Under the pieces are notes generated by a model, which saw only the letters and a list, made by a program, of their open reading frames with translations, made no database searches and was not told where the DNA came from. The position numbers and the translations under genes are program-made. Below, piece by piece: positions 1-36,487 of a stretch of 38,978 bases of DNA (positions are counted from its first letter, which is position 1; the number at the start of each line of letters is the position of its first letter). The stretch lies in IMG/VR virus record IMGVR_UViG_2713896784_000029; one strand, 5' to 3'. The stretch comes from a virus. Lineage: Duplodnaviria > Heunggongvirae > Uroviricota > Caudoviricetes.

Positions 1-531
1 CTAACCCGCTTTAGATTCTACCGGATTTGATTGCCTACTTGTCTCGGTTTTTTCCAAAATCTCTCTGACGCAATCGTCTGGCATATCTACAATCATCAAC
101 GCAGCCAGGCGCTTCCTGCCTTCTAGTTGTAATAAATCCTGGTTTTCTTTATCCAGCAGTGTCAGAACCGTCTCTACACCTTTGCGAGCAAGGAGATTGG
201 TTAACTGTTCTCGTTCGTCTTTCGTAAGGAATGAAAGCATCTGTGTAAGTTGATCTCCCTTATCACCAGAACAACCAAAATTACCACAAATACCAACATC
301 GTTTGGTGATTCACCCTTGCCCTCTTTAAGCCACTCAAGACTAACTCCTTCACTTTCAGAAATTCGTATAAGGATACTTTCTCTGGGGGCTGGTTGTGTT
401 TGTCCTCCCTTGAAATAGCTGTTTAATGTGTTGATATTGATTCCCCACGCTCTGGCAGCTGCACTTCTTGAAGGGTAGCGCTTTGTAAGCATTCCAATAC
501 GTTCAATAACAGGTTCTTTTCCCTGCGACAT
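1..531 (-). CDS. prophage repressor, XRE/Cro-C1-type HTH
   Basis: Leftward ORF divergent from ner; HTH-like segment SRSAAARAWGININTLNSYFKG; start at minus-strand ATG 531 preferred because of upstream GAGGT RBS (ORF-track start 606 has none). Stop codon is at window bases 1-3. Confidence 0.6.
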   Translation of the reverse strand: MSQGKEPVIERIGMLTKRYPSRSAAARAWGININTLNSYFKGGQTQPAPRESILIRISESEGVSLEWLKEGKGESPNDVGICGNFGCSGDKGDQLTQMLSFLTKDEREQLTNLLARKGVETVLTLLDKENQDLLQLEGRKRLAALMIVDMPDDCVREILEKTETSRQSNPVESKAG

Positions 532-611
532 AAAGATACCTCTTGGTGCTTTTCTAAGGAAAGGTTTCTTTCTATTTATCCAATTGAAAAATAAGGATAA
601 AAGCAAAAATT

Positions 612-697
612 AGCCAAAATACCAAAAATACCTTGATTTGGTATTTTTGGTGATGCATTATTTACCCGTGCAGATATCCGCACGAATATCCGCGCGG
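612..697. promoter_or_regulatory. repressor/ner divergent operator-promoter region
   Basis: Perfect 11-bp inverted repeat CCAAAAATACC (622-632) / GGTATTTTTGG (640-650), overlapping direct repeat CCAAAATACC (614-623), direct repeat ATATCCGC at 674-681 and 686-693, palindrome CCGCGCGG; lies between divergent repressor and ner. Confidence 0.5.
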
Positions 698-721
698 GTA
701 ACTTTTTAGAATAGAGGAAGT

Positions 722-970
722 ATGAGTAGAAGAGAAGTTTCAGATCACGATTGGCCGCCTGAAATCATCAAGGCGCGCTTACACATGGCTGGCTTATCAC
801 TGCGCTCTTTATCTTTAAAGGCTGGTTACAGCAGGGATTCGCTGAAAAGCGTATTACGTACTCCTTGCCGACCGTATCAGCAAATAATTGCTGATGCTCT
901 TGGGGTATCGCCTGAAGAAATCTGGCCCAGTAGATACCAGGTTAAGAGCTATATGAGAAAGGCGTCATGA
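722..970 (+). CDS. ner: Ner-like DNA-binding protein (early transcription regulator)
   Basis: 82 aa; motif QIIADALGVSPEEIWPSRYQ matches the Mu Ner/Nlp C-terminal pattern; RBS AGGAAG; first gene of rightward early operon. Confidence 0.85.
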   Translation: MSRREVSDHDWPPEIIKARLHMAGLSLRSLSLKAGYSRDSLKSVLRTPCRPYQQIIADALGVSPEEIWPSRYQVKSYMRKAS

Positions 971-971
971 T

Positions 972-3062
972 ATGTATGTCATTGCAAAAGAACTGATTGG
1001 CGCGCCCGGAATGCCTGCTACAACAAAAGGTATTCGCCAGGCATTACAACGTTACGTACAAGGGAAAAGCTGTTGTTCCCGTCGTCGCTCAGGCTCTAAA
1101 GCAACTGAATACAGCATCGACTGTTTACCTGAAGTGACGCAGCAGGCATTACGTGAACGTTATGCCCTGCAACTGATGACGCAAAAAGCCGATGAATCAC
1201 CGGCTCCGGTGGTGACAAAGGCCAGACGCTCATCTGACGTGGTTGATGCGGTGGAGGCATATCGCGGATCACCACAACTGATGGTCGAACGCCTCAATGC
1301 CCTGACTGAAAACCAGCGCCAGGTGGCTGATGCACGAATCGCGATCGTCAGCGAAGTGATGAAAGTCGCGCAACAACCCGGTTTCAGCTGCGCGAAGGCT
1401 ATCCGGTTTATCGTTGACAACCTGGCACGTTCACAGCTGGACGAGCGCATTGTGGCAATGGTTGAGACGGCGAACGCCAAAAAGGGAAACAGCCGTGCGT
1501 TGAGTGAAATCACGCTGAAGCGATGGATTGCGGCCTTTAACAAGGCACAGAACGCCGCTGAACGCCTGCTTTTACTGGCACCGGGTAAACGCCAGGAAAT
1601 AAAAGCCGAAGATATTAACTGGCTGCCCGAATTTCTGGCGCAGTATCGCCAGTCAAACGGCCGACCAATGACCGAGGCTTACGAGGATTTTGTCGCTGAA
1701 TGGCAGCACCGGCACGCTGATGAGCCTTATATGCTCGATATCATGCCGTCTTATGACACCATTCGCCGCGCAATGAAGAAACTGCCGGAAGTGGTGAAAC
1801 AAAAAGGCCGGGTGACCGGCAGTGAATACCGCCAGCTTGAGGGATTCACGCGCCGCGACTGGTCCAGAATGCCGGTGAATTATGTCTGGATTGGTGACGG
1901 TCACGGCATGAAGCTGAAATGCGCACACCCGGTTCACGGTCGGCCATTTGCACCGGAAGTGACCTTTGTTATCGACGGTGGCACGCGCTTTGTGGTGGGC
2001 TGGAGCCTTGACCTGGCTGAAAATGTTTTCGCCGTAGCCGGTGCCATACAGCACGGCATTCGCCATCACGGCAAACCGTTTCTGTATTACTCGGATAACG
2101 GCTCCGGGGAAACCGCCGACATCCTGGATAAGGAGGTTGTGGGGATACTGCCGCGACTGGGGATTAATCACCCGACCGGGATTGCCGGTAATCCGCAGGG
2201 GCGAGGCATTATCGAACGGCTTAACCGCACATTACCGATGCGCATAGCCCGTAAATACCGCACCTATTTCGGGAAAGGTGCAGATCGCGAGACGTTACGC
2301 AAAACCAACCGCGATTTACGCTCGGCATTTACTGCCCTGCAACAGGGCAAACGGCTGAACGCCCGGCAGCAGTCAGCGATGCGTGATTTACCGTCCTGGT
2401 CTGAACTGATTGATGCCATTCGTGATGGTGTTGAGTGGTACAACAACCGGCCGCACGATGAATTACCGGTGAAGCCGAACGGCAAGCATTACAGCCCGGC
2501 GGAGTTCAGAAAAAAACGCCTGGCGGAAGAGGACACGGAAATTGAATGGCTGTCCGATGTGGAATTGCGGGACATGTTCCGGCCGATGGTGGAACGCCCT
2601 GTAAGACGCTGTGAAATACGCTGGCTGAATAATATTTACTACGCGCCCGAGCTGCGTGATGAGCATGGCCGCAAGGTGCTTATCAGCTATGACATTCATG
2701 ATGCCGAACGAATTACCGTACGTCGCCTGGATGGCAGCGTGATTTGCGAGGCGGTATGGGACGGTAATAAACGCGAAGCCTTCCCGGTTAGCGCGGAATA
2801 CTACAAACAGCAGCAACGCCTTAAAGGCATGCGTAAACGCGCAGAGGAAAAAATCCGTGATGCCGAGGATGAGGTTGTCAACGTGCTGGAGCACAAGCCG
2901 CAGGAGCCCTGGCTGGAAAACATCTATCGCCCGGTAGGTAATACGGTGGCCGTTCAGCAACCTGCCATTGATGATGAGCCTGATGAAGAATACGAGCGCA
3001 ATTTCCAGCGGGGATTGCAGTTGCTCGAAGCGAAATTAAAAGAAAATGACCCGCTGGCCTGA
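972..3062 (+). CDS. A: Mu-type DDE transposase A
   Basis: 696 aa; position after ner; candidate catalytic D-D-E in VWIGDGHGM, YYSDNGSGE, IIERLNRT; N-terminus resembles the MuA end/enhancer-binding domain. Confidence 0.9.
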   Translation: MYVIAKELIGAPGMPATTKGIRQALQRYVQGKSCCSRRRSGSKATEYSIDCLPEVTQQALRERYALQLMTQKADESPAPVVTKARRSSDVVDAVEAYRGSPQLMVERLNALTENQRQVADARIAIVSEVMKVAQQPGFSCAKAIRFIVDNLARSQLDERIVAMVETANAKKGNSRALSEITLKRWIAAFNKAQNAAERLLLLAPGKRQEIKAEDINWLPEFLAQYRQSNGRPMTEAYEDFVAEWQHRHADEPYMLDIMPSYDTIRRAMKKLPEVVKQKGRVTGSEYRQLEGFTRRDWSRMPVNYVWIGDGHGMKLKCAHPVHGRPFAPEVTFVIDGGTRFVVGWSLDLAENVFAVAGAIQHGIRHHGKPFLYYSDNGSGETADILDKEVVGILPRLGINHPTGIAGNPQGRGIIERLNRTLPMRIARKYRTYFGKGADRETLRKTNRDLRSAFTALQQGKRLNARQQSAMRDLPSWSELIDAIRDGVEWYNNRPHDELPVKPNGKHYSPAEFRKKRLAEEDTEIEWLSDVELRDMFRPMVERPVRRCEIRWLNNIYYAPELRDEHGRKVLISYDIHDAERITVRRLDGSVICEAVWDGNKREAFPVSAEYYKQQQRLKGMRKRAEEKIRDAEDEVVNVLEHKPQEPWLENIYRPVGNTVAVQQPAIDDEPDEEYERNFQRGLQLLEAKLKENDPLA

Positions 3063-3132: not shown

Positions 3133-4065
3133 ATGACTGATATTAACGATGTAATCAAGACCATTGATGAACTTATTGATGGCGGCGTACTGACGCAGTA
3201 TGCCATCGCCAGAGAGGCGGGAATTTCCGACGGCACATTATCGGCTTTCCGCAAGGGAAAATATAAAGGCGATAACGCTGCTGTGGCTGCTTCCCTGCGT
3301 TCCTGGTATGAGAACTGGAATAAACAAAGCGCACTGCCGGAACCGCCGCAGTTTGTGGAAACGCAGACAGTCCAGGAGCTGCGCGCACTGTTTCAGGCGG
3401 TTCGTCTGATGGGCTGTATTAACGTTATTGTGGGCGTACCGGGTGTGGGTAAAACGGCCACTGCCCGTAATTACTGCCAGGAGCAACCAAACACCTGGAT
3501 GATCACCCTGTCACCCGCGCACTCCAGCGTCACGGAGTGTCTGCTGGAGCTGGCCGATGCGCTGGGGATTGATTACACCCGCGCGAACAAAGGGGCATTA
3601 TCCCGCGCCATCCGCCGTCGCCTGATGGGAACGCGTGGACTGGTGATTGTGGATGAGGCGGATCATCTTGGTATTGACGGTCTGGAGCAACTCCGGGCAA
3701 TTCAGGACGCCACGGGGATCGGGATGGTGCTTATTGGTAACCCGCGCGGATTGTTTAAAGGTGGACGCCGCGCCTTTGATGATTTATCGCGCCTGTTCAG
3801 CCGTCTTGCCCGTACAAAACAACTTCGCAAGGCCAAAAAGGCGGATGTGCTGGCCATTGCCAGGGCATGGGGAATCAGTGGTGAGGCCGAGCTGGCCGTC
3901 ATGCAGGCTATCGCTGAAAAGCCGGGAGCGTTACGCGTTCTGACACATACGCTTAACCAGGCGTGGCTCACCGCCAGCGGTGAAGGCGCGGCGCTGACAG
4001 AAAAACATATTAATGCGGCCTTTAAAGAGGTTTATACCAACCCTGAATTACTCTCGCAGGTGTGA
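3133..4065 (+). CDS. B: transposition target-DNA activator B (AAA+ ATPase)
   Basis: 310 aa; Walker A GVPGVGKT, Walker B-like LVIVDEADHL; immediately downstream of A; RBS GAGAGG. Confidence 0.85.
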   Translation: MTDINDVIKTIDELIDGGVLTQYAIAREAGISDGTLSAFRKGKYKGDNAAVAASLRSWYENWNKQSALPEPPQFVETQTVQELRALFQAVRLMGCINVIVGVPGVGKTATARNYCQEQPNTWMITLSPAHSSVTECLLELADALGIDYTRANKGALSRAIRRRLMGTRGLVIVDEADHLGIDGLEQLRAIQDATGIGMVLIGNPRGLFKGGRRAFDDLSRLFSRLARTKQLRKAKKADVLAIARAWGISGEAELAVMQAIAEKPGALRVLTHTLNQAWLTASGEGAALTEKHINAAFKEVYTNPELLSQV

Positions 4066-31815: not shown

Positions 31816-32726
31816 TGTTCCATGTTGATAATAATTCCGGCGTGGCGAATATGCCTGCGCTGGCACCGGCGCAGAGTAATACCACCACCTGGTTTACCGA
31901 AGGTGACGGACAAAAAGGTATCAGCTGGATTGGTCAGGACTGGCTGAATATTCTCCAGGCCGAACTGCTGAATATTCTGGCTGAAGCCAGTATTCAGCCG
32001 GATAAGGCGCAGTTAAACCAGCTTACGCTGTCCATTAAAGCCATTATCGCTGCGAATGCCTTTTCCCGGAAAAACAACCTGAAAGAAATTGCTGATGCCG
32101 GTGCGGAAGCCCAGCGTCTTGCCCGTGGTTATCTTGGTCTTGGGGCGCTTGCCACAAAAAACAGTCTTGGTCCCGGTGACGTTAATGCTCTGGCGAAGGA
32201 TCAGAACCTTGCCGACCTGGAGAATGCGGGAACCGCCCGTAATAATCTGGATGTTTACAGCAAAAGCGAAGGTGATAACCGTTACCTGCGCAGGGAGCAG
32301 AACGGCGCAGACATTCCGGATAAAGGCGCTTTTATCGATAACGTTGGTTTACGGGAAACGGTAAATAAGGCTGCTGATGCCCTGCCATCGGGTGGAACCG
32401 CCGTGGCAGCAAACAGACTCGCCACCCCAAGAAATATTAATGGTGTTCCTTTTGACGGAACGCTGGATATCAACATCACGTCAGGAATGACGCAGTCAAC
32501 CGCAGATGGCCGGTATGTACAGAATGTTCAGCTTGGAGCACAGAGCTATCATTCACCCGGAGGCAATGAAATGTCATGGAATTACAGCGCACCTTCCGGT
32601 TGTATGCTTTCCGGAATTAACGTGCAGGAAACCGGCTCCCGGTCTGCGGACAATATCGGTGGGGTCTATTATCGCCCGGTTCAGATTTATATTAATAATG
32701 CCTGGAGAACGGTAAGTTCAGTGTAA
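31815..32726 (+). CDS. tail fibre protein; constant N-terminal part plus variable C-terminal part inside invertible segment
   Basis: ATG 31815 after GAGGAGAA RBS; from about nt 32346 the 3' portion is repeated in inverted orientation at 33560-33720. Confidence 0.75.
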   Translation: MFHVDNNSGVANMPALAPAQSNTTTWFTEGDGQKGISWIGQDWLNILQAELLNILAEASIQPDKAQLNQLTLSIKAIIAANAFSRKNNLKEIADAGAEAQRLARGYLGLGALATKNSLGPGDVNALAKDQNLADLENAGTARNNLDVYSKSEGDNRYLRREQNGADIPDKGAFIDNVGLRETVNKAADALPSGGTAVAANRLATPRNINGVPFDGTLDINITSGMTQSTADGRYVQNVQLGAQSYHSPGGNEMSWNYSAPSGCMLSGINVQETGSRSADNIGGVYYRPVQIYINNAWRTVSSV

Positions 32727-32736
32727 ACCACAGAAA

Positions 32737-32755
32737 AGGGTGCTGAATGCACCCT
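32737..32755. terminator. hairpin between convergent fibre and fibre-assembly genes
   Basis: AGGGTGC-TGAAT-GCACCCT stem-loop in the 34-bp gap between the two convergent stop codons. Confidence 0.4.
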
Positions 32756-32760
32756 CTGAA

Positions 32761-33282
32761 TTATTCCGGTTTTTCCGGCCAGGGAATCGCCTGGTAATGC
32801 CCCTCACTGGCAATATCATTAAAGTGCATTTCTTTAAGCTGTCGGATATACGCCATCCAGCGCGTCAGCTGTAATTTATTTTCATCGCTAATCATGTCCA
32901 GTTTTAATTCCGTTTTCCAGTCATCCACAGTTTCGTTGGCTTCCTGGAGCAGCGATGAGCGGCGCTTTTCAGCAACCGTCTTCCAGTTTACCGGCACCTT
33001 TGATATCAGGCCATCAGAAAACTGCCAGTTACCGTCAATATTCACACCTTCCGGCAGTTCGTCCACTTCAACAACAGTAAAACCTGCCGGATATAAAGCA
33101 GAGACATCTTCAGCAACAGAGCAGATAATACCCGTTACAGGCGAAATACAGAGTTTGTATTTCTTTGTGAAAAGCGGGATAGATTCATAAAAATCCCTTC
33201 CGTCCTCACTCTGGAAATACTGAACATCCTCACCATAGGGTTTGTGTTCCGGGTAATATCGTTTTACGTTAATAAGCTCCAT
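32761..33282 (-). CDS. tail fibre assembly protein (U'-like chaperone)
   Basis: Minus-strand ORF; start at ATG 33282 (MELINVKRYY) with AAGGTGA RBS; C-terminal W/R-rich region typical of fibre assembly chaperones. Confidence 0.7.
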   Translation of the reverse strand: MELINVKRYYPEHKPYGEDVQYFQSEDGRDFYESIPLFTKKYKLCISPVTGIICSVAEDVSALYPAGFTVVEVDELPEGVNIDGNWQFSDGLISKVPVNWKTVAEKRRSSLLQEANETVDDWKTELKLDMISDENKLQLTRWMAYIRQLKEMHFNDIASEGHYQAIPWPEKPE

Positions 33283-33361
33283 TATTTCACCTTGTTTTTG
33301 TTGAAAAGACAAAATCATCATATATTTATTCAGATAATCTGTTTTTTGAACTACTGCACTT

Positions 33362-33720
33362 TTATGCGCTGGAAGCTGTTTTCCACGAACCATCTATCAG
33401 AAACTGAACAGGTCGATAATATGCGGTTACCGTTGCATTACCATCACCAGCGACATCAAGCCCTGTAAGTACGCATCCGTCAGGAACCTCAAAAATATTA
33501 TATTGCATTCCAATCGTTGACCTTGAACCTCTTCGAATGCTTTGAACATAACGTGAGTCAGCCACAGACTGCGTCATCCCCGATGTAATATTTATATCCT
33601 GCGTTCCGTCAAATGGGACACCATTAATATTTCTTGGAGTGGCGAGTTTATTCGCTGCAACAGCCGCTCCGTTCGATGGCAGGGCATTCGCGGCCCTGTT
33701 TACAGTATCCCGTAAACCGA
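33362..33720 (-). other. alternative tail-fibre C-terminal coding segment (Sv'-like) without own start
   Basis: Minus-strand frame open to the segment border; translation ...GLRDTVNRAANALPSNGAAVAANKLATPRNINGVPFDGTQDINITSGMTQSVADSRYVQ... parallels the plus-strand fibre. Would fuse to the fibre constant part only after inversion. Confidence 0.6.
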
Positions 33721-33787
33721 AGGTTTCAGGGATGCCGTATATCTGCTTTAAAAGGCCTTTCCACCTCTTTTTAAGGAAGGTAAATAC

Positions 33788-34348
33788 ATGCTGATTGGCT
33801 ATATACGCGTATCAACAAATGACCAGAACACAGGTTTACAAAGAAATGCGCTGGAATGTGCAGGATGTGAGCAGATTTTTGAAGATAAAATGAGTGGTAA
33901 AACGACACAGCGGCCGGGACTGAAGCGGGCACTGAAGAAACTAAAACCCGGTGACACACTGATGGTCTGGAAACTGGACAGGCTGGGGCGCAGTATGCGC
34001 CACCTTGTTGCGCTGACAGATGAATTACAGCAACAGGGGATAAATTTTCGTAGTCTTACTGACAACATTGATACGTCAACCCCCATGGGGCGCTTCTTTT
34101 TTCACATAATGGGTGCGCTGGCAGAAATGGAGCGTGAATTAATTGTCGAACGGACACGGGCTGGTCTTGCAGCTGCCCGTGAAAGGGGACGAACCGGCGG
34201 CAGACCCCGTCGTCTCACGCAGGAACAATACGAGCAGGTCGGGCGTTTACTGGCCGGGGGTGTCAGTCGAAGACAGGTGGCACTTATTTTTGATATCGGC
34301 CTTTCAACCCTTTATCGTTATTATCCTGCGAGCGTTTCGGAAAAATAA
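33788..34348 (+). CDS. gin: serine recombinase, Gin/Hin/Pin/Cin-family DNA invertase
   Basis: 186 aa; MLIGYIRVSTNDQNTGLQRNAL... with catalytic Ser in RVST and C-terminal HTH (QVALIFDIGLSTLYRY); very close to Mu Gin as recalled. Confidence 0.9.
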   Translation: MLIGYIRVSTNDQNTGLQRNALECAGCEQIFEDKMSGKTTQRPGLKRALKKLKPGDTLMVWKLDRLGRSMRHLVALTDELQQQGINFRSLTDNIDTSTPMGRFFFHIMGALAEMERELIVERTRAGLAAARERGRTGGRPRRLTQEQYEQVGRLLAGGVSRRQVALIFDIGLSTLYRYYPASVSEK

Positions 34349-34447
34349 GACGCTCTCTTTGTTGGGCCTTTACTGAATTAACGCAAAATGGCGTTTATCG
34401 GTCTGTGGATATGATAATTCAGTTTATTCAGGAACAGGCTGATTATT

Positions 34448-36487
34448 ATGACGTCCAAATGGGTTCAACTATCATCAATGCCCGGAAACTTTACTGTTAA
34501 AGTTTCCGGTGGTACAGCGGCATTTCTTGAGGCTCCCTTTCCTCCGGCCGAAACAAAAGGAGGAATGACATTTGCTGACTGTCTCATCAGTTTTAATACA
34601 CGGGATTGCCTGTGGGTAAGGCCAGTATCCGGTGATCCGAGTGTGGAAATTACCGGAGCGGGTATTGGTGCGGTCATTCCGTTAAGTGCTGATGTTGCCG
34701 GTACTGCTGAACCGTCAGACTGGGATAATGCTGAAACACATACCCGTCCGTCAGGAAATGAAACTGCTTCCAGCTCCCCTTCCTGGTATTACGTGGTGGT
34801 TCTTGCTGGTCAGTCAAACGGTATGGCTTACGGTGAAGGTCTGCCACTGCCGGAGACATATGACCGCCCCGAACCGCGTATTATGCAGTTAGCCCGTCGC
34901 AGTACAGTCACGCCGGGAGGTAAAGCCTGTCAGTATAACGACATCATTCTGGCCGACCACTGTCTGCATGATGTGCAGGATATGAGTGGAAAAAATCACC
35001 CGAAAGCGGATGTGGCTAAAGGGCAATATGGCACCGTGGGTCAGGGGCTTCACATTGCCAAAAAACTGCTGCCGTTTATTCCGGCAGATGCGGGGATTCT
35101 GCTGGTTCCCTGCTGCCGTGGTGGTTCTGCATTCACGGCGGGTGCTGACGGCACGTACAGTGACAGCACGGGTGCTTCAGAGGACTCAGCCCGCTGGGGT
35201 GTGGATAAGCCGCTGTATAAGGACTTAATCAGCCGGACAAAAGCGGCACTGGCGAAGAACCCGAAAAACCGCCTGCTTGCTGTGGTGTGGATGCAGGGCG
35301 AGTTTGATATTGATGCGAAGCCGACGGAGCATTCCGCGCTGTTTCTGGCGATGGTGGAAAAATTCCGCGCAGACCTGGCTGAACAGGCGGAACAGTGTAC
35401 CGGTGGCAGTGCTGCTGGCGTTCCGTGGATTTGTGGCGATACCACGTATTTCTGGAAACAGAAAAATGAACCGGCATACCAGGCAATCTATGGCGGCTAC
35501 AAAAACAAAACAGATAAAAACATTCATTTCGTTCCATTAATGACAGATGAAAATGACGCGAATGTACCCACCAACAATCCGGCAGAAGACCCGGATATTG
35601 AATCCATTGGTTATTACGGCTCAACGTGGCGTAACAGTGCCGCCACCTGGACATCTGCGGACCGGGCCAGCCATTTCAGTTCATGGGCACGTCGTGGGAT
35701 TATTTCCGACCGTCTGGCCACGGCAGTTCTGACTCATGCGGGGCGAACCACAGTAAAAGCCGATGTTCCATCTTCTGAAACTGAAGCACCAGTGCCGTCA
35801 CCTTCAGAAACTGAAGCAGTAACCACAACACTGCTGTCTTATCGTGTCAGTGAGTCAGAAGGAAATCTGAAAGCCCAGGGCTGGGAGCCGGCTGGCGGTA
35901 AAGCTGAAATTATCAGTGATGCAGGAGGCACAGGTGGTAAGGCAATGAAACTGACCAAGGAAACAGGTAAATCATCCTGGTATCTGGATCATGATGCCGG
36001 TACTGGTGCTGAACTGCTGAAAAATGGTGGTTTAATCAGTTGTCGTTTTAAAGTACCTGGCGACCTGGTGGCAAACCAGTATGTCATGGGGCTTTACTGG
36101 CCGGTTTCCTCTCTGCCGCAGGGTGTCACCCTGACAGGGGATGCAGGGAATAATCTGCTGGCATCGTTCTACATCCAGACAGACGCAAAAGACCTGAATG
36201 TGATGTACCACAATGCAAAAGTGGCAACAAATAACCAGAAACTGGGAACCTTTGGTGCATTTGATAATGAATGGCATACGCTGGCCTTCCGTTTTGCAGG
36301 AAATAACAGCCTTCAGGTTATTCCGGTTATTGATGGTCAGGATGGTGCCGCGTTTACCCTGACGCAGTCACCAGTAGGAACTTTCCCGGTGGACAAACTC
36401 CGCGTAACGGATATCACAAAAAATGCAACTTACCCGGTGCTGATTGACAGCATTGTGGTGGAAGTGAAAAAAGCGGTAACAGAATAA
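34448..36487 (+). CDS. cargo SASA/SGNH-type carbohydrate O-acetylesterase (prophage NanS-p-like) with C-terminal beta-rich domain
   Basis: 679 aa; VVVLAGQSNGMAYGEG (Ser motif) and VVWMQGEFD (WxQGE.D) match the sialate O-acetylesterase family signature; SETEA-SETEA linker then ~230-aa beta-rich domain; located between gin and com where Mu has no gene. Confidence 0.6.
   Translation: MTSKWVQLSSMPGNFTVKVSGGTAAFLEAPFPPAETKGGMTFADCLISFNTRDCLWVRPVSGDPSVEITGAGIGAVIPLSADVAGTAEPSDWDNAETHTRPSGNETASSSPSWYYVVVLAGQSNGMAYGEGLPLPETYDRPEPRIMQLARRSTVTPGGKACQYNDIILADHCLHDVQDMSGKNHPKADVAKGQYGTVGQGLHIAKKLLPFIPADAGILLVPCCRGGSAFTAGADGTYSDSTGASEDSARWGVDKPLYKDLISRTKAALAKNPKNRLLAVVWMQGEFDIDAKPTEHSALFLAMVEKFRADLAEQAEQCTGGSAAGVPWICGDTTYFWKQKNEPAYQAIYGGYKNKTDKNIHFVPLMTDENDANVPTNNPAEDPDIESIGYYGSTWRNSAATWTSADRASHFSSWARRGIISDRLATAVLTHAGRTTVKADVPSSETEAPVPSPSETEAVTTTLLSYRVSESEGNLKAQGWEPAGGKAEIISDAGGTGGKAMKLTKETGKSSWYLDHDAGTGAELLKNGGLISCRFKVPGDLVANQYVMGLYWPVSSLPQGVTLTGDAGNNLLASFYIQTDAKDLNVMYHNAKVATNNQKLGTFGAFDNEWHTLAFRFAGNNSLQVIPVIDGQDGAAFTLTQSPVGTFPVDKLRVTDITKNATYPVLIDSIVVEVKKAVTE

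Follow-up and report, generated by a model that had tools for sequence, protein, structure and literature searches.

Bacteriophage Mu is the textbook example of coupling between lysogeny and transposition: a DNA-binding head is common to its repressor and its transposase, which are rivals for operator/enhancer DNA. The C-terminal region of the Mu repressor (Rep, the product of gene c) serves in oligomerisation, and its tail governs both DNA binding and sensitivity to ClpXP. The heteroimmune region that separates Mu from D108 takes in the 5′ end of the transposase gene A. In coliphage 186, the CI repressor acts on widely spaced half-sites and possibly on flanking or distal sites. The winged-helix subdomain of the Mu transposase attaches to the transpositional enhancer, a stretch that overlaps the operators (PMC3362531, PMC3145075). 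Mu-like phages with helix-turn-helix (HTH) repressors have also been documented; several of these have an HTH plus an S24 domain and are inducible by mitomycin, and B3 is listed as having the HTH only (PMC8541194). The present analysis concerns the left end, positions 1–721, of the IMG/VR virus record IMGVR_UViG_2713896784_000029 (Duplodnaviria; Heunggongvirae; Uroviricota; Caudoviricetes), a stretch of 38,978 nucleotides that is termed the window, and the repressor gene and operators that lie there.

Bases 1–1000 of the window match at 100% the Mu-like prophage Sp18 of Escherichia coli O157:H7 Sakai and of many Shiga toxin-producing E. coli (STEC) genomes. The window opens exactly with the ECs_4943 stop codon, 249 bp inward from the left end of Sp18, and bases 1–721 are very probably the immunity region of this prophage. 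Judged by homology, the Sp18 repressor is itself chimeric, with an XRE head joined to a Mu c-type C-terminal domain. A perfect palindrome between the repressor gene and ner is, on comparative evidence, the operator of this repressor and not a transposase or Ner site. The genes and protein domains in question are:

1–531, minus strand: immunity repressor gene ECs_4943, 176 aa (ATG 529–531, stop 1–3), delimited by the open reading frame and by relatives
316–531, minus strand: predicted Cro/CI (XRE)-type five-helix DNA-binding domain of the repressor, residues 1–72
412–468, minus strand: the HTH within this N-terminal domain, helices 22–29 and 33–40
256–315, minus strand: variable, lineage-specific linker DVGICGNFGCSGDKG, residues 73–92, modelled with low confidence (predicted local confidence score, pLDDT, below 50 at 82–89) and unalignable among relatives
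4–255, minus strand: C-terminal domain homologous to that of Mu c (the oligomerisation and ClpXP-control region in Mu), ending in SKAG
722–970, plus strand: Ner-like early regulator, 82 aa (PF13693 HTH_35, 2.5e-19; phrog_769, 3e-26)
972–3062, plus strand: MuA-family transposase, 696 aa (PF09299, 1.5e-17; PF02316; phrog_310, 2e-212)
987–1400, plus strand: Mu-type winged-helix N-domain of the transposase, about residues 3–64, with a PF02316 span of residues 6–143
3133–4065: MuB-like ATPase (PF09077)

The repressor head shows the fold of the Cro/CI group. An AlphaFold2 model made with 27 homologues has a mean pLDDT of 77, and of about 90 over the N-domain; its predicted template modelling score of 0.44 is as expected, because two domains are joined by a floppy linker. 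The modelled N-domain consists of helices 8–16, 22–29, 33–40, 51–61 and 65–70 with no beta wing, a five-helix globular domain with the HTH formed by helices 2 and 3. It superposes on P22 c2, 434 repressor and Cro, SinR, TP901-1 CI and 186 CI, and Foldseek returns the same Cro/CI set, plus 186 CI, at template modelling scores of 0.70–0.75 normalised to the target. Sequence identity to P22 c2 and 434 repressor/Cro is only about 18–20%. At the level of family profiles, the CI-type PHROGs 4, 2328 and 8 match residues 20–78 at about 1e-5, and PF07022 (Phage_CI_repr) is matched by 18 of 32 sampled repressor homologues at E ≤ 0.01, the best at 7e-6. By predicted fold and by family, the head is thus a divergent Cro/CI (XRE) member, without a direct threshold match of its own.

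The Mu-type winged helix, PF02316, is not found in the repressor with the same library that finds it in the adjacent transposase. BLASTP of the repressor against the N-terminus of its own phage's transposase shows no similarity, and the top 50–60 structural matches of the N-domain include neither a Mu repressor chain nor a MuA chain. A first, sequence-only reading of this DNA had given the leftward repressor a lambda-like XRE HTH, and the model, the PHROG matches and the PF07022 matches of homologues all bear this out. It had also named the finding that would overturn it, a match between the repressor N-terminus and a profile of the Mu repressor or MuA domain I; such a match was looked for and not found. 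The profile comparison that it proposed, XRE against Mu DNA-binding domain, has a less tidy result on the XRE side, with HTH_3 and Phage_CI_repr sub-threshold in the repressor itself and PF07022 found in its homologues.

The C-terminal domain resembles that of Mu c. BLASTP aligns only residues 95–171 of the repressor with Mu c (residues 105–183), at 29% identity and an E value of 0.035. The PHROG family of Mu c, phrog_7148, to which Mu c itself scores 7e-73, matches repressor residues 91–174 at 2e-10; reciprocally, Mu c residues 90–185 match phrog_3037, the family of the Sp18 repressor, at 1e-4. When a profile of the C-terminal domain only, limited to the Sp18-like subtype, is compared with the Mu c family by hhalign, the probability is 92% (E 5.7e-7, 71 columns), in the same register as in BLASTP. 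The extreme ends are also alike, with SKAG in the repressor and KKAV in Mu c, and both families end in K-A-[V/G]. The domain is modelled as a helical bundle, and no S24 peptidase (PF00717) or other peptidase is found in the repressor at E ≤ 1.

An unbiased check came from a search of 1.84 billion representative proteins with the C-domain profile, which finds 109 at E ≤ 1e-3. Heads of the 86 proteins of at least 160 aa that were scanned include Phage_CI_repr in 45, HTH_3 in 39 (best 4e-21) and PF02316 in 15 (best 4e-22). One C-terminal module therefore combines naturally with either an XRE or a Mu-type head. The sequence-only reading had proposed a hybrid immunity region. That proposal stands and can be carried further, as the repressor protein appears chimeric too; its novelty has to be put lower, since Sp18 is a long-known prophage and lambda-like repressors in Mu-like phages have been documented (PMC8541194). 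In the repressor family the distal part of the C-domain has two subtypes, a Mu-like one, LEGRKRLAALMLVDMPDExVREIL, found in Sp18, and another that reads LDRVMKEKVLGLQPRTPEE followed by ARECG. The subtypes do not sort with N-domain type, a pattern suggestive of further shuffling within the repressor. In two homologues of 266–279 aa (P0024 and P0062), the N-terminal HTH domain is tandemly duplicated ahead of the same C-terminal domain.

By analogy with Mu, the Sp18 repressor may be under the same type of C-terminal, ClpXP-linked control. As it lacks an S24 domain, induction driven by SOS and RecA would not be expected. Sp18 has been described as apparently intact, with DNA that is packaged efficiently and with no induction by mitomycin C (PMC2669165), and the lack of mitomycin induction, together with the missing S24 domain, fits a ClpXP-type control of the repressor. 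Sp18 resembles Mu and D108 in not being mitomycin-inducible (PMC2669165).

The sequence elements of the intergenic region that bear on operator function are:

621–651: predicted main operator, a perfect 12-bp inverted repeat, ACCAAAAATACC at 621–632 and GGTATTTTTGGT at 640–651 with a 7-nt spacer, bracketing the Pe −35
633–661, plus strand: putative early promoter Pe, −35 TTGATT at 633–638, 17-nt spacer, −10 CATTAT at 656–661
588–617, minus strand: weak candidate repressor promoter Pc, −35 TTGGCT (plus-strand 612–617), 18-nt spacer, −10 TATTTT (588–593)
612–623, plus strand: third half-site AGCCAAAATACC, which repeats the left arm directly, 9 bp to its left
662–701: probable Ner operator, an imperfect palindrome with 19-nt arms that are 84% complementary, over the expected Pe start

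The inverted repeat had been reported as 11 bp from the sequence alone; it is present and perfect, but is 12 bp in length. We roughly estimate the chance that a 190-bp intergenic region holds a perfect 12-mer inverted repeat with a short spacer at about 1e-4 to 1e-3. The left arm adjoins the −35 of Pe and the right arm occupies the spacer between −35 and −10. The fragment 612–697, which had been named for a binding test, does hold the repressor palindrome; it also holds much of the second, imperfect palindrome at 662–701, which tracks Ner.

Evidence on the identity of the palindrome's protein partner comes from about 30 related loci, stacked at the conserved Ner-box end. They are drawn from the phages Tongde and VW-6B, at least six genome loci, 25 viral contigs and two closer E. 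coli relatives, and are given L numbers where they must be told apart. The position of the palindrome is conserved in relatives. Where helix 3 of the repressor reads NTL[N/K/Q]SYF, the arms read ATACC...GGTA[T/C] (Sp18, L036, L038, L005, L022 and L023). L026 has the SYF helix and the GGTAT right arm with an ACACC left arm, and Tongde is an SYF exception on the right arm, which is GGTGT. Where helix 3 reads NTL[Q/K/N]NYY, the arms read (G/C)A(A/C)C...GTTC, as in thirteen distinct loci.

Three phylogenetically independent natural swaps separate the repressor from its neighbours: Sp18 versus L027/L029, Tongde versus L028/L030, and L023 versus L008/L031. In every pair Ner shows 98–100% identity and transposase residues 1–100 show 92–99%, against only 50–59% for the repressor N-domain, and the half-site type differs. 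Sp18 and Tongde, on the other hand, have half-site and helix type in common with transposase N-termini that are only 42% identical. The half-site thus switches with the repressor recognition helix and not with Ner or the transposase; on these comparisons the palindrome belongs to the repressor. The sequence-only reading had considered the inverted repeat typical of dimeric HTH repressors, and the co-variation agrees with it; the head may act as a dimer on a two-fold symmetric operator, for which the perfect repeat and the co-variation give indirect support. Between Sp18 and L027, DNA identity resumes precisely at the Pe −10. The exchangeable immunity module, on this pattern of swaps, is the repressor gene plus its operators.

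The transposase has kept the Mu-type head, as had been claimed from the sequence alone. Its PF02316 match has 28.7 bits, above the cutoff of 23.3, BLASTP of the transposase against the Mu c N-terminus gives an E value of 5e-5, and the N-terminal part of the phrog_7148 profile matches residues 3–64. The repressor head is non-homologous to it, and across natural variants a change of repressor and operator type leaves the transposase N-domain as it was. By these comparisons, the specificity of the repressor is independent of that N-domain, and the Mu-style tie of immunity specificity to the transposase's enhancer-binding head is broken.

The related regions also inform on other elements. The sequence TTGAYW-17-TATnnT is found at the Pe offset in 15 of 18 related loci, with scores up to 10/12. 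Pc is the best minus-strand match in Sp18, and matches at a like offset are seen in L005, L006, L025, L026 and L008. Its −35 overlaps the third half-site. If Pc is real, it and Pe stand back-to-back, and Pc would be shut off as more repressor is bound. The double left arm created by the third half-site is common to Sp18, Tongde, L022, L026, L006, L025 and VW-6B. The box at 662–701 has the units GATATC, AATATC and GGTAAC at a 12-bp spacing. The form GATATCC..AATATCC..GGGTAA accompanies Ner of the Sp18, L020 and L036 type, and GATAACC..GGTTATCC..GATAAC accompanies Ner of the 'DWHPEIIKAEIHKRG' type; the box is identical despite the repressor swap between Sp18 and L027/L029. It is probably the site of the Ner-like protein, and its place over the expected Pe start fits a Ner-like negative regulation of early transcription.

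Additional sequences that resemble half-sites are found in and near the 5′ end of the repressor gene:

512–520: half-site-like copy GGTTCTTTT, in the KEP codons at the 5′ end of the repressor gene
532–540: half-site-like copy AAAGATACC, repressor leader
545–553: half-site-like copy GGTGCTTTT, repressor leader
563–571: half-site-like copy GGTTTCTTT, repressor leader
274–310, plus strand: candidate distal operator within the repressor gene, ACCAAAATTACC at 274–285 and ACCACAAATACC at 283–294, plus TTTGGTGAT at 302–310

The architecture of the 512–571 cluster is conserved in about 25 loci. In relatives these copies encode K-E-P, G-x-F and x-K-E in a short leader at the N-terminus and also make up the ribosome-binding site (RBS). 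The G-x-F copy (532–540) co-varies with the Pe half-site: it is GTAC or ATAC in the SYF loci Sp18, L036, L038, L005 and L026, and in L021, which has an SYY helix. L023 is an SYF exception with GAAC, and GAAC or ACAC is seen in the other NYY loci. In Sp18, L036 and L038 the leader motifs persist though they are non-coding, and one copy in L036/L038 is now the cognate GGTATTTTT. This persistence in a non-coding leader argues for selection on the DNA. The reading of the GGTTCTTTT copies as a mere by-product of K-E-P codons and RBS was rejected in part, as copies persist or improve where non-coding; it may still hold for the copy at 512–520.

With respect to the distal pair, 12-mers within one mismatch of the half-site occur four times in the window, against 0.15 expected in shuffles, and outside the operator region only 274–285 and 283–294 are found. 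The two copies overlap, lie about 340 bp from the main operator and are followed by TTTGGTGAT, as at Pe. This stretch is a candidate distal operator; chance or low complexity could also account for it, since the GGT-rich linker codons are lineage-specific.

Two other explanations have been considered for the repressor gene. A highly diverged Mu-type winged helix in the N-domain is barely credible. Nothing positive was found for it, and the sub-threshold Pfam XRE scores are the sole point in its favour; it is contradicted by the lack of a PF02316 signal beside a transposase in which the signal is detected, by the CI-type identity of the PHROG matches of the N-half, by the all-helical model, and by the best small-domain structural matches, which are all Cro/CI folds. 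Alternatively, ECs_4943 might be a generic XRE-family regulator or a remnant, with immunity supplied elsewhere. The gene is labelled 'hypothetical protein' in RefSeq and 'regulatory protein' in Sakai, has no above-threshold Pfam match, and encodes a product 13 residues shorter than its relatives after loss of the ancestral start codon. However, the gene is syntenic with Mu c, being leftmost and divergent from ner-A-B, and the C-domain of its product is a homologue of the Mu c one. Members of its family are intact open reading frames beside ner and A in many Enterobacterales prophages and in isolated phages, among them Tongde, YpM_5/6 and VW-6B, where the gene is annotated 'C repressor'. In addition, a replacement RBS and ATG are in place, and Sp18 is reported to be intact and packaged (PMC2669165). 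A generic or remnant gene is very improbable.

The palindrome at 621–651 is classed by a scan as a terminator-like feature of the minus strand, with a 12-pair stem and 7-nt loop followed by ATTTTGG. It could then be an intrinsic terminator hairpin for leftward transcription, or simply a chance AT-rich hairpin with no protein partner. But the stem has just four G-C pairs, the T-run is weak, and the palindrome is upstream of both putative starts (Pe about 668 rightward, Pc about 581 leftward) and so would normally be untranscribed. Relatives keep two half-sites around the −35, and their substitutions track repressor type and are not compensatory stem changes. The terminator was rejected on its position and on this substitution pattern, and a hairpin function in either form is highly improbable. 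A function for the palindrome and the A-tract repeats as a transposition enhancer (internal activation sequence, IAS) for the MuA-like N-domain, or as a Ner site, has somewhat more to recommend it but is also improbable. The Mu enhancer overlaps O1–O2 and is bound by MuA domain I-alpha (PMC3145075, PMC3362531), Mu operators also hold CTTTT/AAAAG repeats, the Sp18 transposase retains a MuA-like N-domain, and the GGTTCTTTT copies at the repressor gene 5′ end are invariant across immunity types. In contrast, the Pe half-site changes in the three swaps in which the transposase N-terminus and Ner do not, it is constant between Sp18 and Tongde despite their divergent transposase N-termini, and the element specific to Ner type is the separate box at 662–701. 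What may be retained from the enhancer proposal is that the invariant GGTTCTTTT copies at 512–571, the foremost enhancer candidates, may double as enhancer elements. In its full form, the immunity-independent copies would be the enhancer for the MuA-like N-domain, and XRE repressor and transposase, with unrelated folds, would compete on interleaved sites; this is unlikely, although less so than the alternatives above. If it is true, the N-terminal peptide of the repressor (K-E-P, G-x-F, x-K-E) is conserved for its DNA and not for its amino acids.

The preferred interpretation, a chimeric repressor acting at the palindrome, is probable; several points weigh against it. The repressor itself reaches only 13.5 bits for HTH_3 (PF01381; cutoff 23, E 0.078) and 12.6 bits for Phage_CI_repr (PF07022; cutoff 22, E 0.18), an NCBIfam scan of it gives nothing above threshold, and PDB searches with the single protein and with the family profile give insignificant matches only. 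Full-length family profiles compared with Mu c reach a probability of only 35% (E 3.9e-4), and the higher hhalign value came from the subtype-limited profile. The arm centres are 19 bp apart, wider than in the classic lambda, 434 and P22 operators. Pe and Pc in Sp18 score only 8/12 each, and a promoter scan of 480–780 called no promoter; the low score is the reason that the tool missed Pe. The clustering of the motif GGT[ATG][TC]TTT, with eight copies in the 39-kb window and five of these within 500–660, speaks for the interpretation, but as the pattern was derived from this same region its P value is inflated. Spacings at the 5′ end also differ, with a gap of 4 nt (6 for the 8-mer) between 532–540 and 545–553 versus 7 or 9 at Pe, and some of these half-sites could be conserved just for encoding K-E-P and the RBS. 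Finally, the searchable literature holds no experiment on the ECs_4943 protein or its DNA and no paper naming ECs4943.

With the repressor as the palindrome's partner, a mechanism may be proposed. An oligomeric repressor, joined through its Mu-type C-domain, would set two XRE heads on the 12-bp inverted repeat at 621–651, and their occupancy would exclude RNA polymerase from Pe and keep ner, transposase gene A and B silent. The half-sites at 612–623 and 512–571, and possibly the pair at 274–294, may provide for cooperative multi-site occupancy and repressor autoregulation, and Ner would act at 662–701. Induction would proceed via the C-terminal domain by a ClpXP-type route and not via RecA. 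The folds, homologies, positions, conservation and co-variation described above are observed; binding, promoter activity, oligomeric state and ClpXP or other proteolytic control are what we infer from them.

In its layout Sp18 closely follows Mu and D108. The repressor gene is leftmost and divergent from ner-A-B, the operators are located between c and ner, and the C-terminal domain is homologous, with the K-A-[VG] end. As in Mu, where O1 is in the c 5′ end and O2 on Pe, operator copies are present at both places. Unlike Mu c, the head is a five-helix Cro/CI HTH and not the PF02316 winged helix of MuA domain I-alpha, and unlike in Mu the operator is a clean inverted repeat and repressor specificity is independent of the transposase N-domain. 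The Cro/CI head in a transposable-phage c repressor is shared with MuM16-1 and BcepMu, which have lambda-CI-like HTH plus S24 repressors (PMC8541194); the Sp18 repressor differs from these in having no S24/LexA autocleavage domain and in its Mu c-type C-domain. By the same absence of S24, it differs from the lambda CI/LexA type. A likeness to 186 CI is seen in PF07022 as the commonest Pfam family (18 of 32 repressor homologues, 45 of the 86 proteins with the C-terminal domain), in 186 CI being among the structural matches, in the wide spacing of half-sites and in possible flanking or distal sites. The C-domain, however, matches Mu c, and no wheel-forming C-terminal domain was detected, although no direct comparison with that of 186 was made. 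The distance between arm centres also sets Sp18 apart from P22 and 434, in which it is roughly one helical turn.

An XRE repressor in place of a winged helix is not new as such, Sp18 has been known since the Sakai genome, and the locus is not a new kind of system. For the fusion of an XRE head to a Mu c C-module, and for the uncoupling of immunity type from the transposase enhancer-binding head, no description was found in the searchable literature; an earlier mention outside it is possible. The branch is widespread in enterobacterial Mu-like phages, as shown by Sp18 of enterohaemorrhagic E. coli (EHEC) O157, Yersinia phage Tongde and Pseudomonas phage VW-6B. The Mu repressor C-terminal control module can evidently pair with another head, and immunity modules, consisting of repressor and operators up to the Pe −10, appear to be exchanged independently of ner and the transposase. 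These phages constitute a natural system for asking if competition between repressor and transposase is needed. They also supply defined pairs of half-site and recognition helix (ATACC with SYF, GAAC with NYY) for specificity studies, and the analysis gives a better annotation for a gene that is 'hypothetical' in RefSeq.

At the level of the gene family, the Sp18 repressor matches PHROG 3037, 'transcriptional repressor', from end to end at 1e-62. A total of 153 homologues were found in Escherichia, Shigella, Salmonella, Klebsiella, Serratia, Edwardsiella, Cedecea, Hafnia, Pantoea, Sodalis, Morganella and others. The mechanical list of open reading frames prolongs the repressor to a TTG at 606; the ATG at 531 was chosen over it because relatives and the RBS support it, the ATG being preceded by the Shine-Dalgarno sequence AAGAGG (plus-strand 539–544). 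The repressors of relatives open with M-x-K-E-x-x-G-x-F-x4-K-E-P. In the lineage of Sp18, L036 and L038 the ancestral start codon is gone, and the gene now begins 13 codons further on, behind a new RBS. At 532–606 the old coding sequence can still be read in frame (..LRKAPRGIF-M), and operator-like motifs are retained in it. The E. coli prophage, Tongde (L003) and VW-6B (L002), a phage isolated on Pseudomonas fluorescens, share about 580 bp at 69% DNA identity. This stretch spans the repressor N-domain, operators and ner; the C-terminal half of the repressor is unalignable at the DNA level.

Between the half-site clusters, the block ATCCAATTGA at 578–587 is conserved in most related loci. On the minus strand it displays a perfect consensus for integration host factor (IHF) in some relatives (L032: TATCAATTGGTTG), and Sp18 has two mismatches. 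An IHF site between operator clusters, as in Mu, is possible, but a clear consensus is not established in Sp18 itself.

Sp18 DNA is present in 190 of 5426 complete E. coli genomes, with coverage of at least 80% in 116. Two Stx phage records carry Sp18 DNA as an inserted 'Mu-like phage'. Despite the identity of bases 1–1000, the window departs from the Sakai record at about 32700–34400, and downstream coordinates are offset by about 229 bp, such that the invertase gene is at 33788 where 33559 is expected. The offset is an indel relative to Sakai Sp18 or another state or content of the invertible tail-fibre region. Rfam finds no family at gathering score over the whole window, 1–38978. Between the DNA invertase and the com/mom-like genes is a cargo gene of 679 aa (34448–36487, plus strand), for which PADLOC gives no match. 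Its product has a sialate O-acetylesterase domain (SASA, 6.5e-12) and DUF6645 (2.4e-69), and looks like the prophage-borne NanS-type esterases of EHEC.

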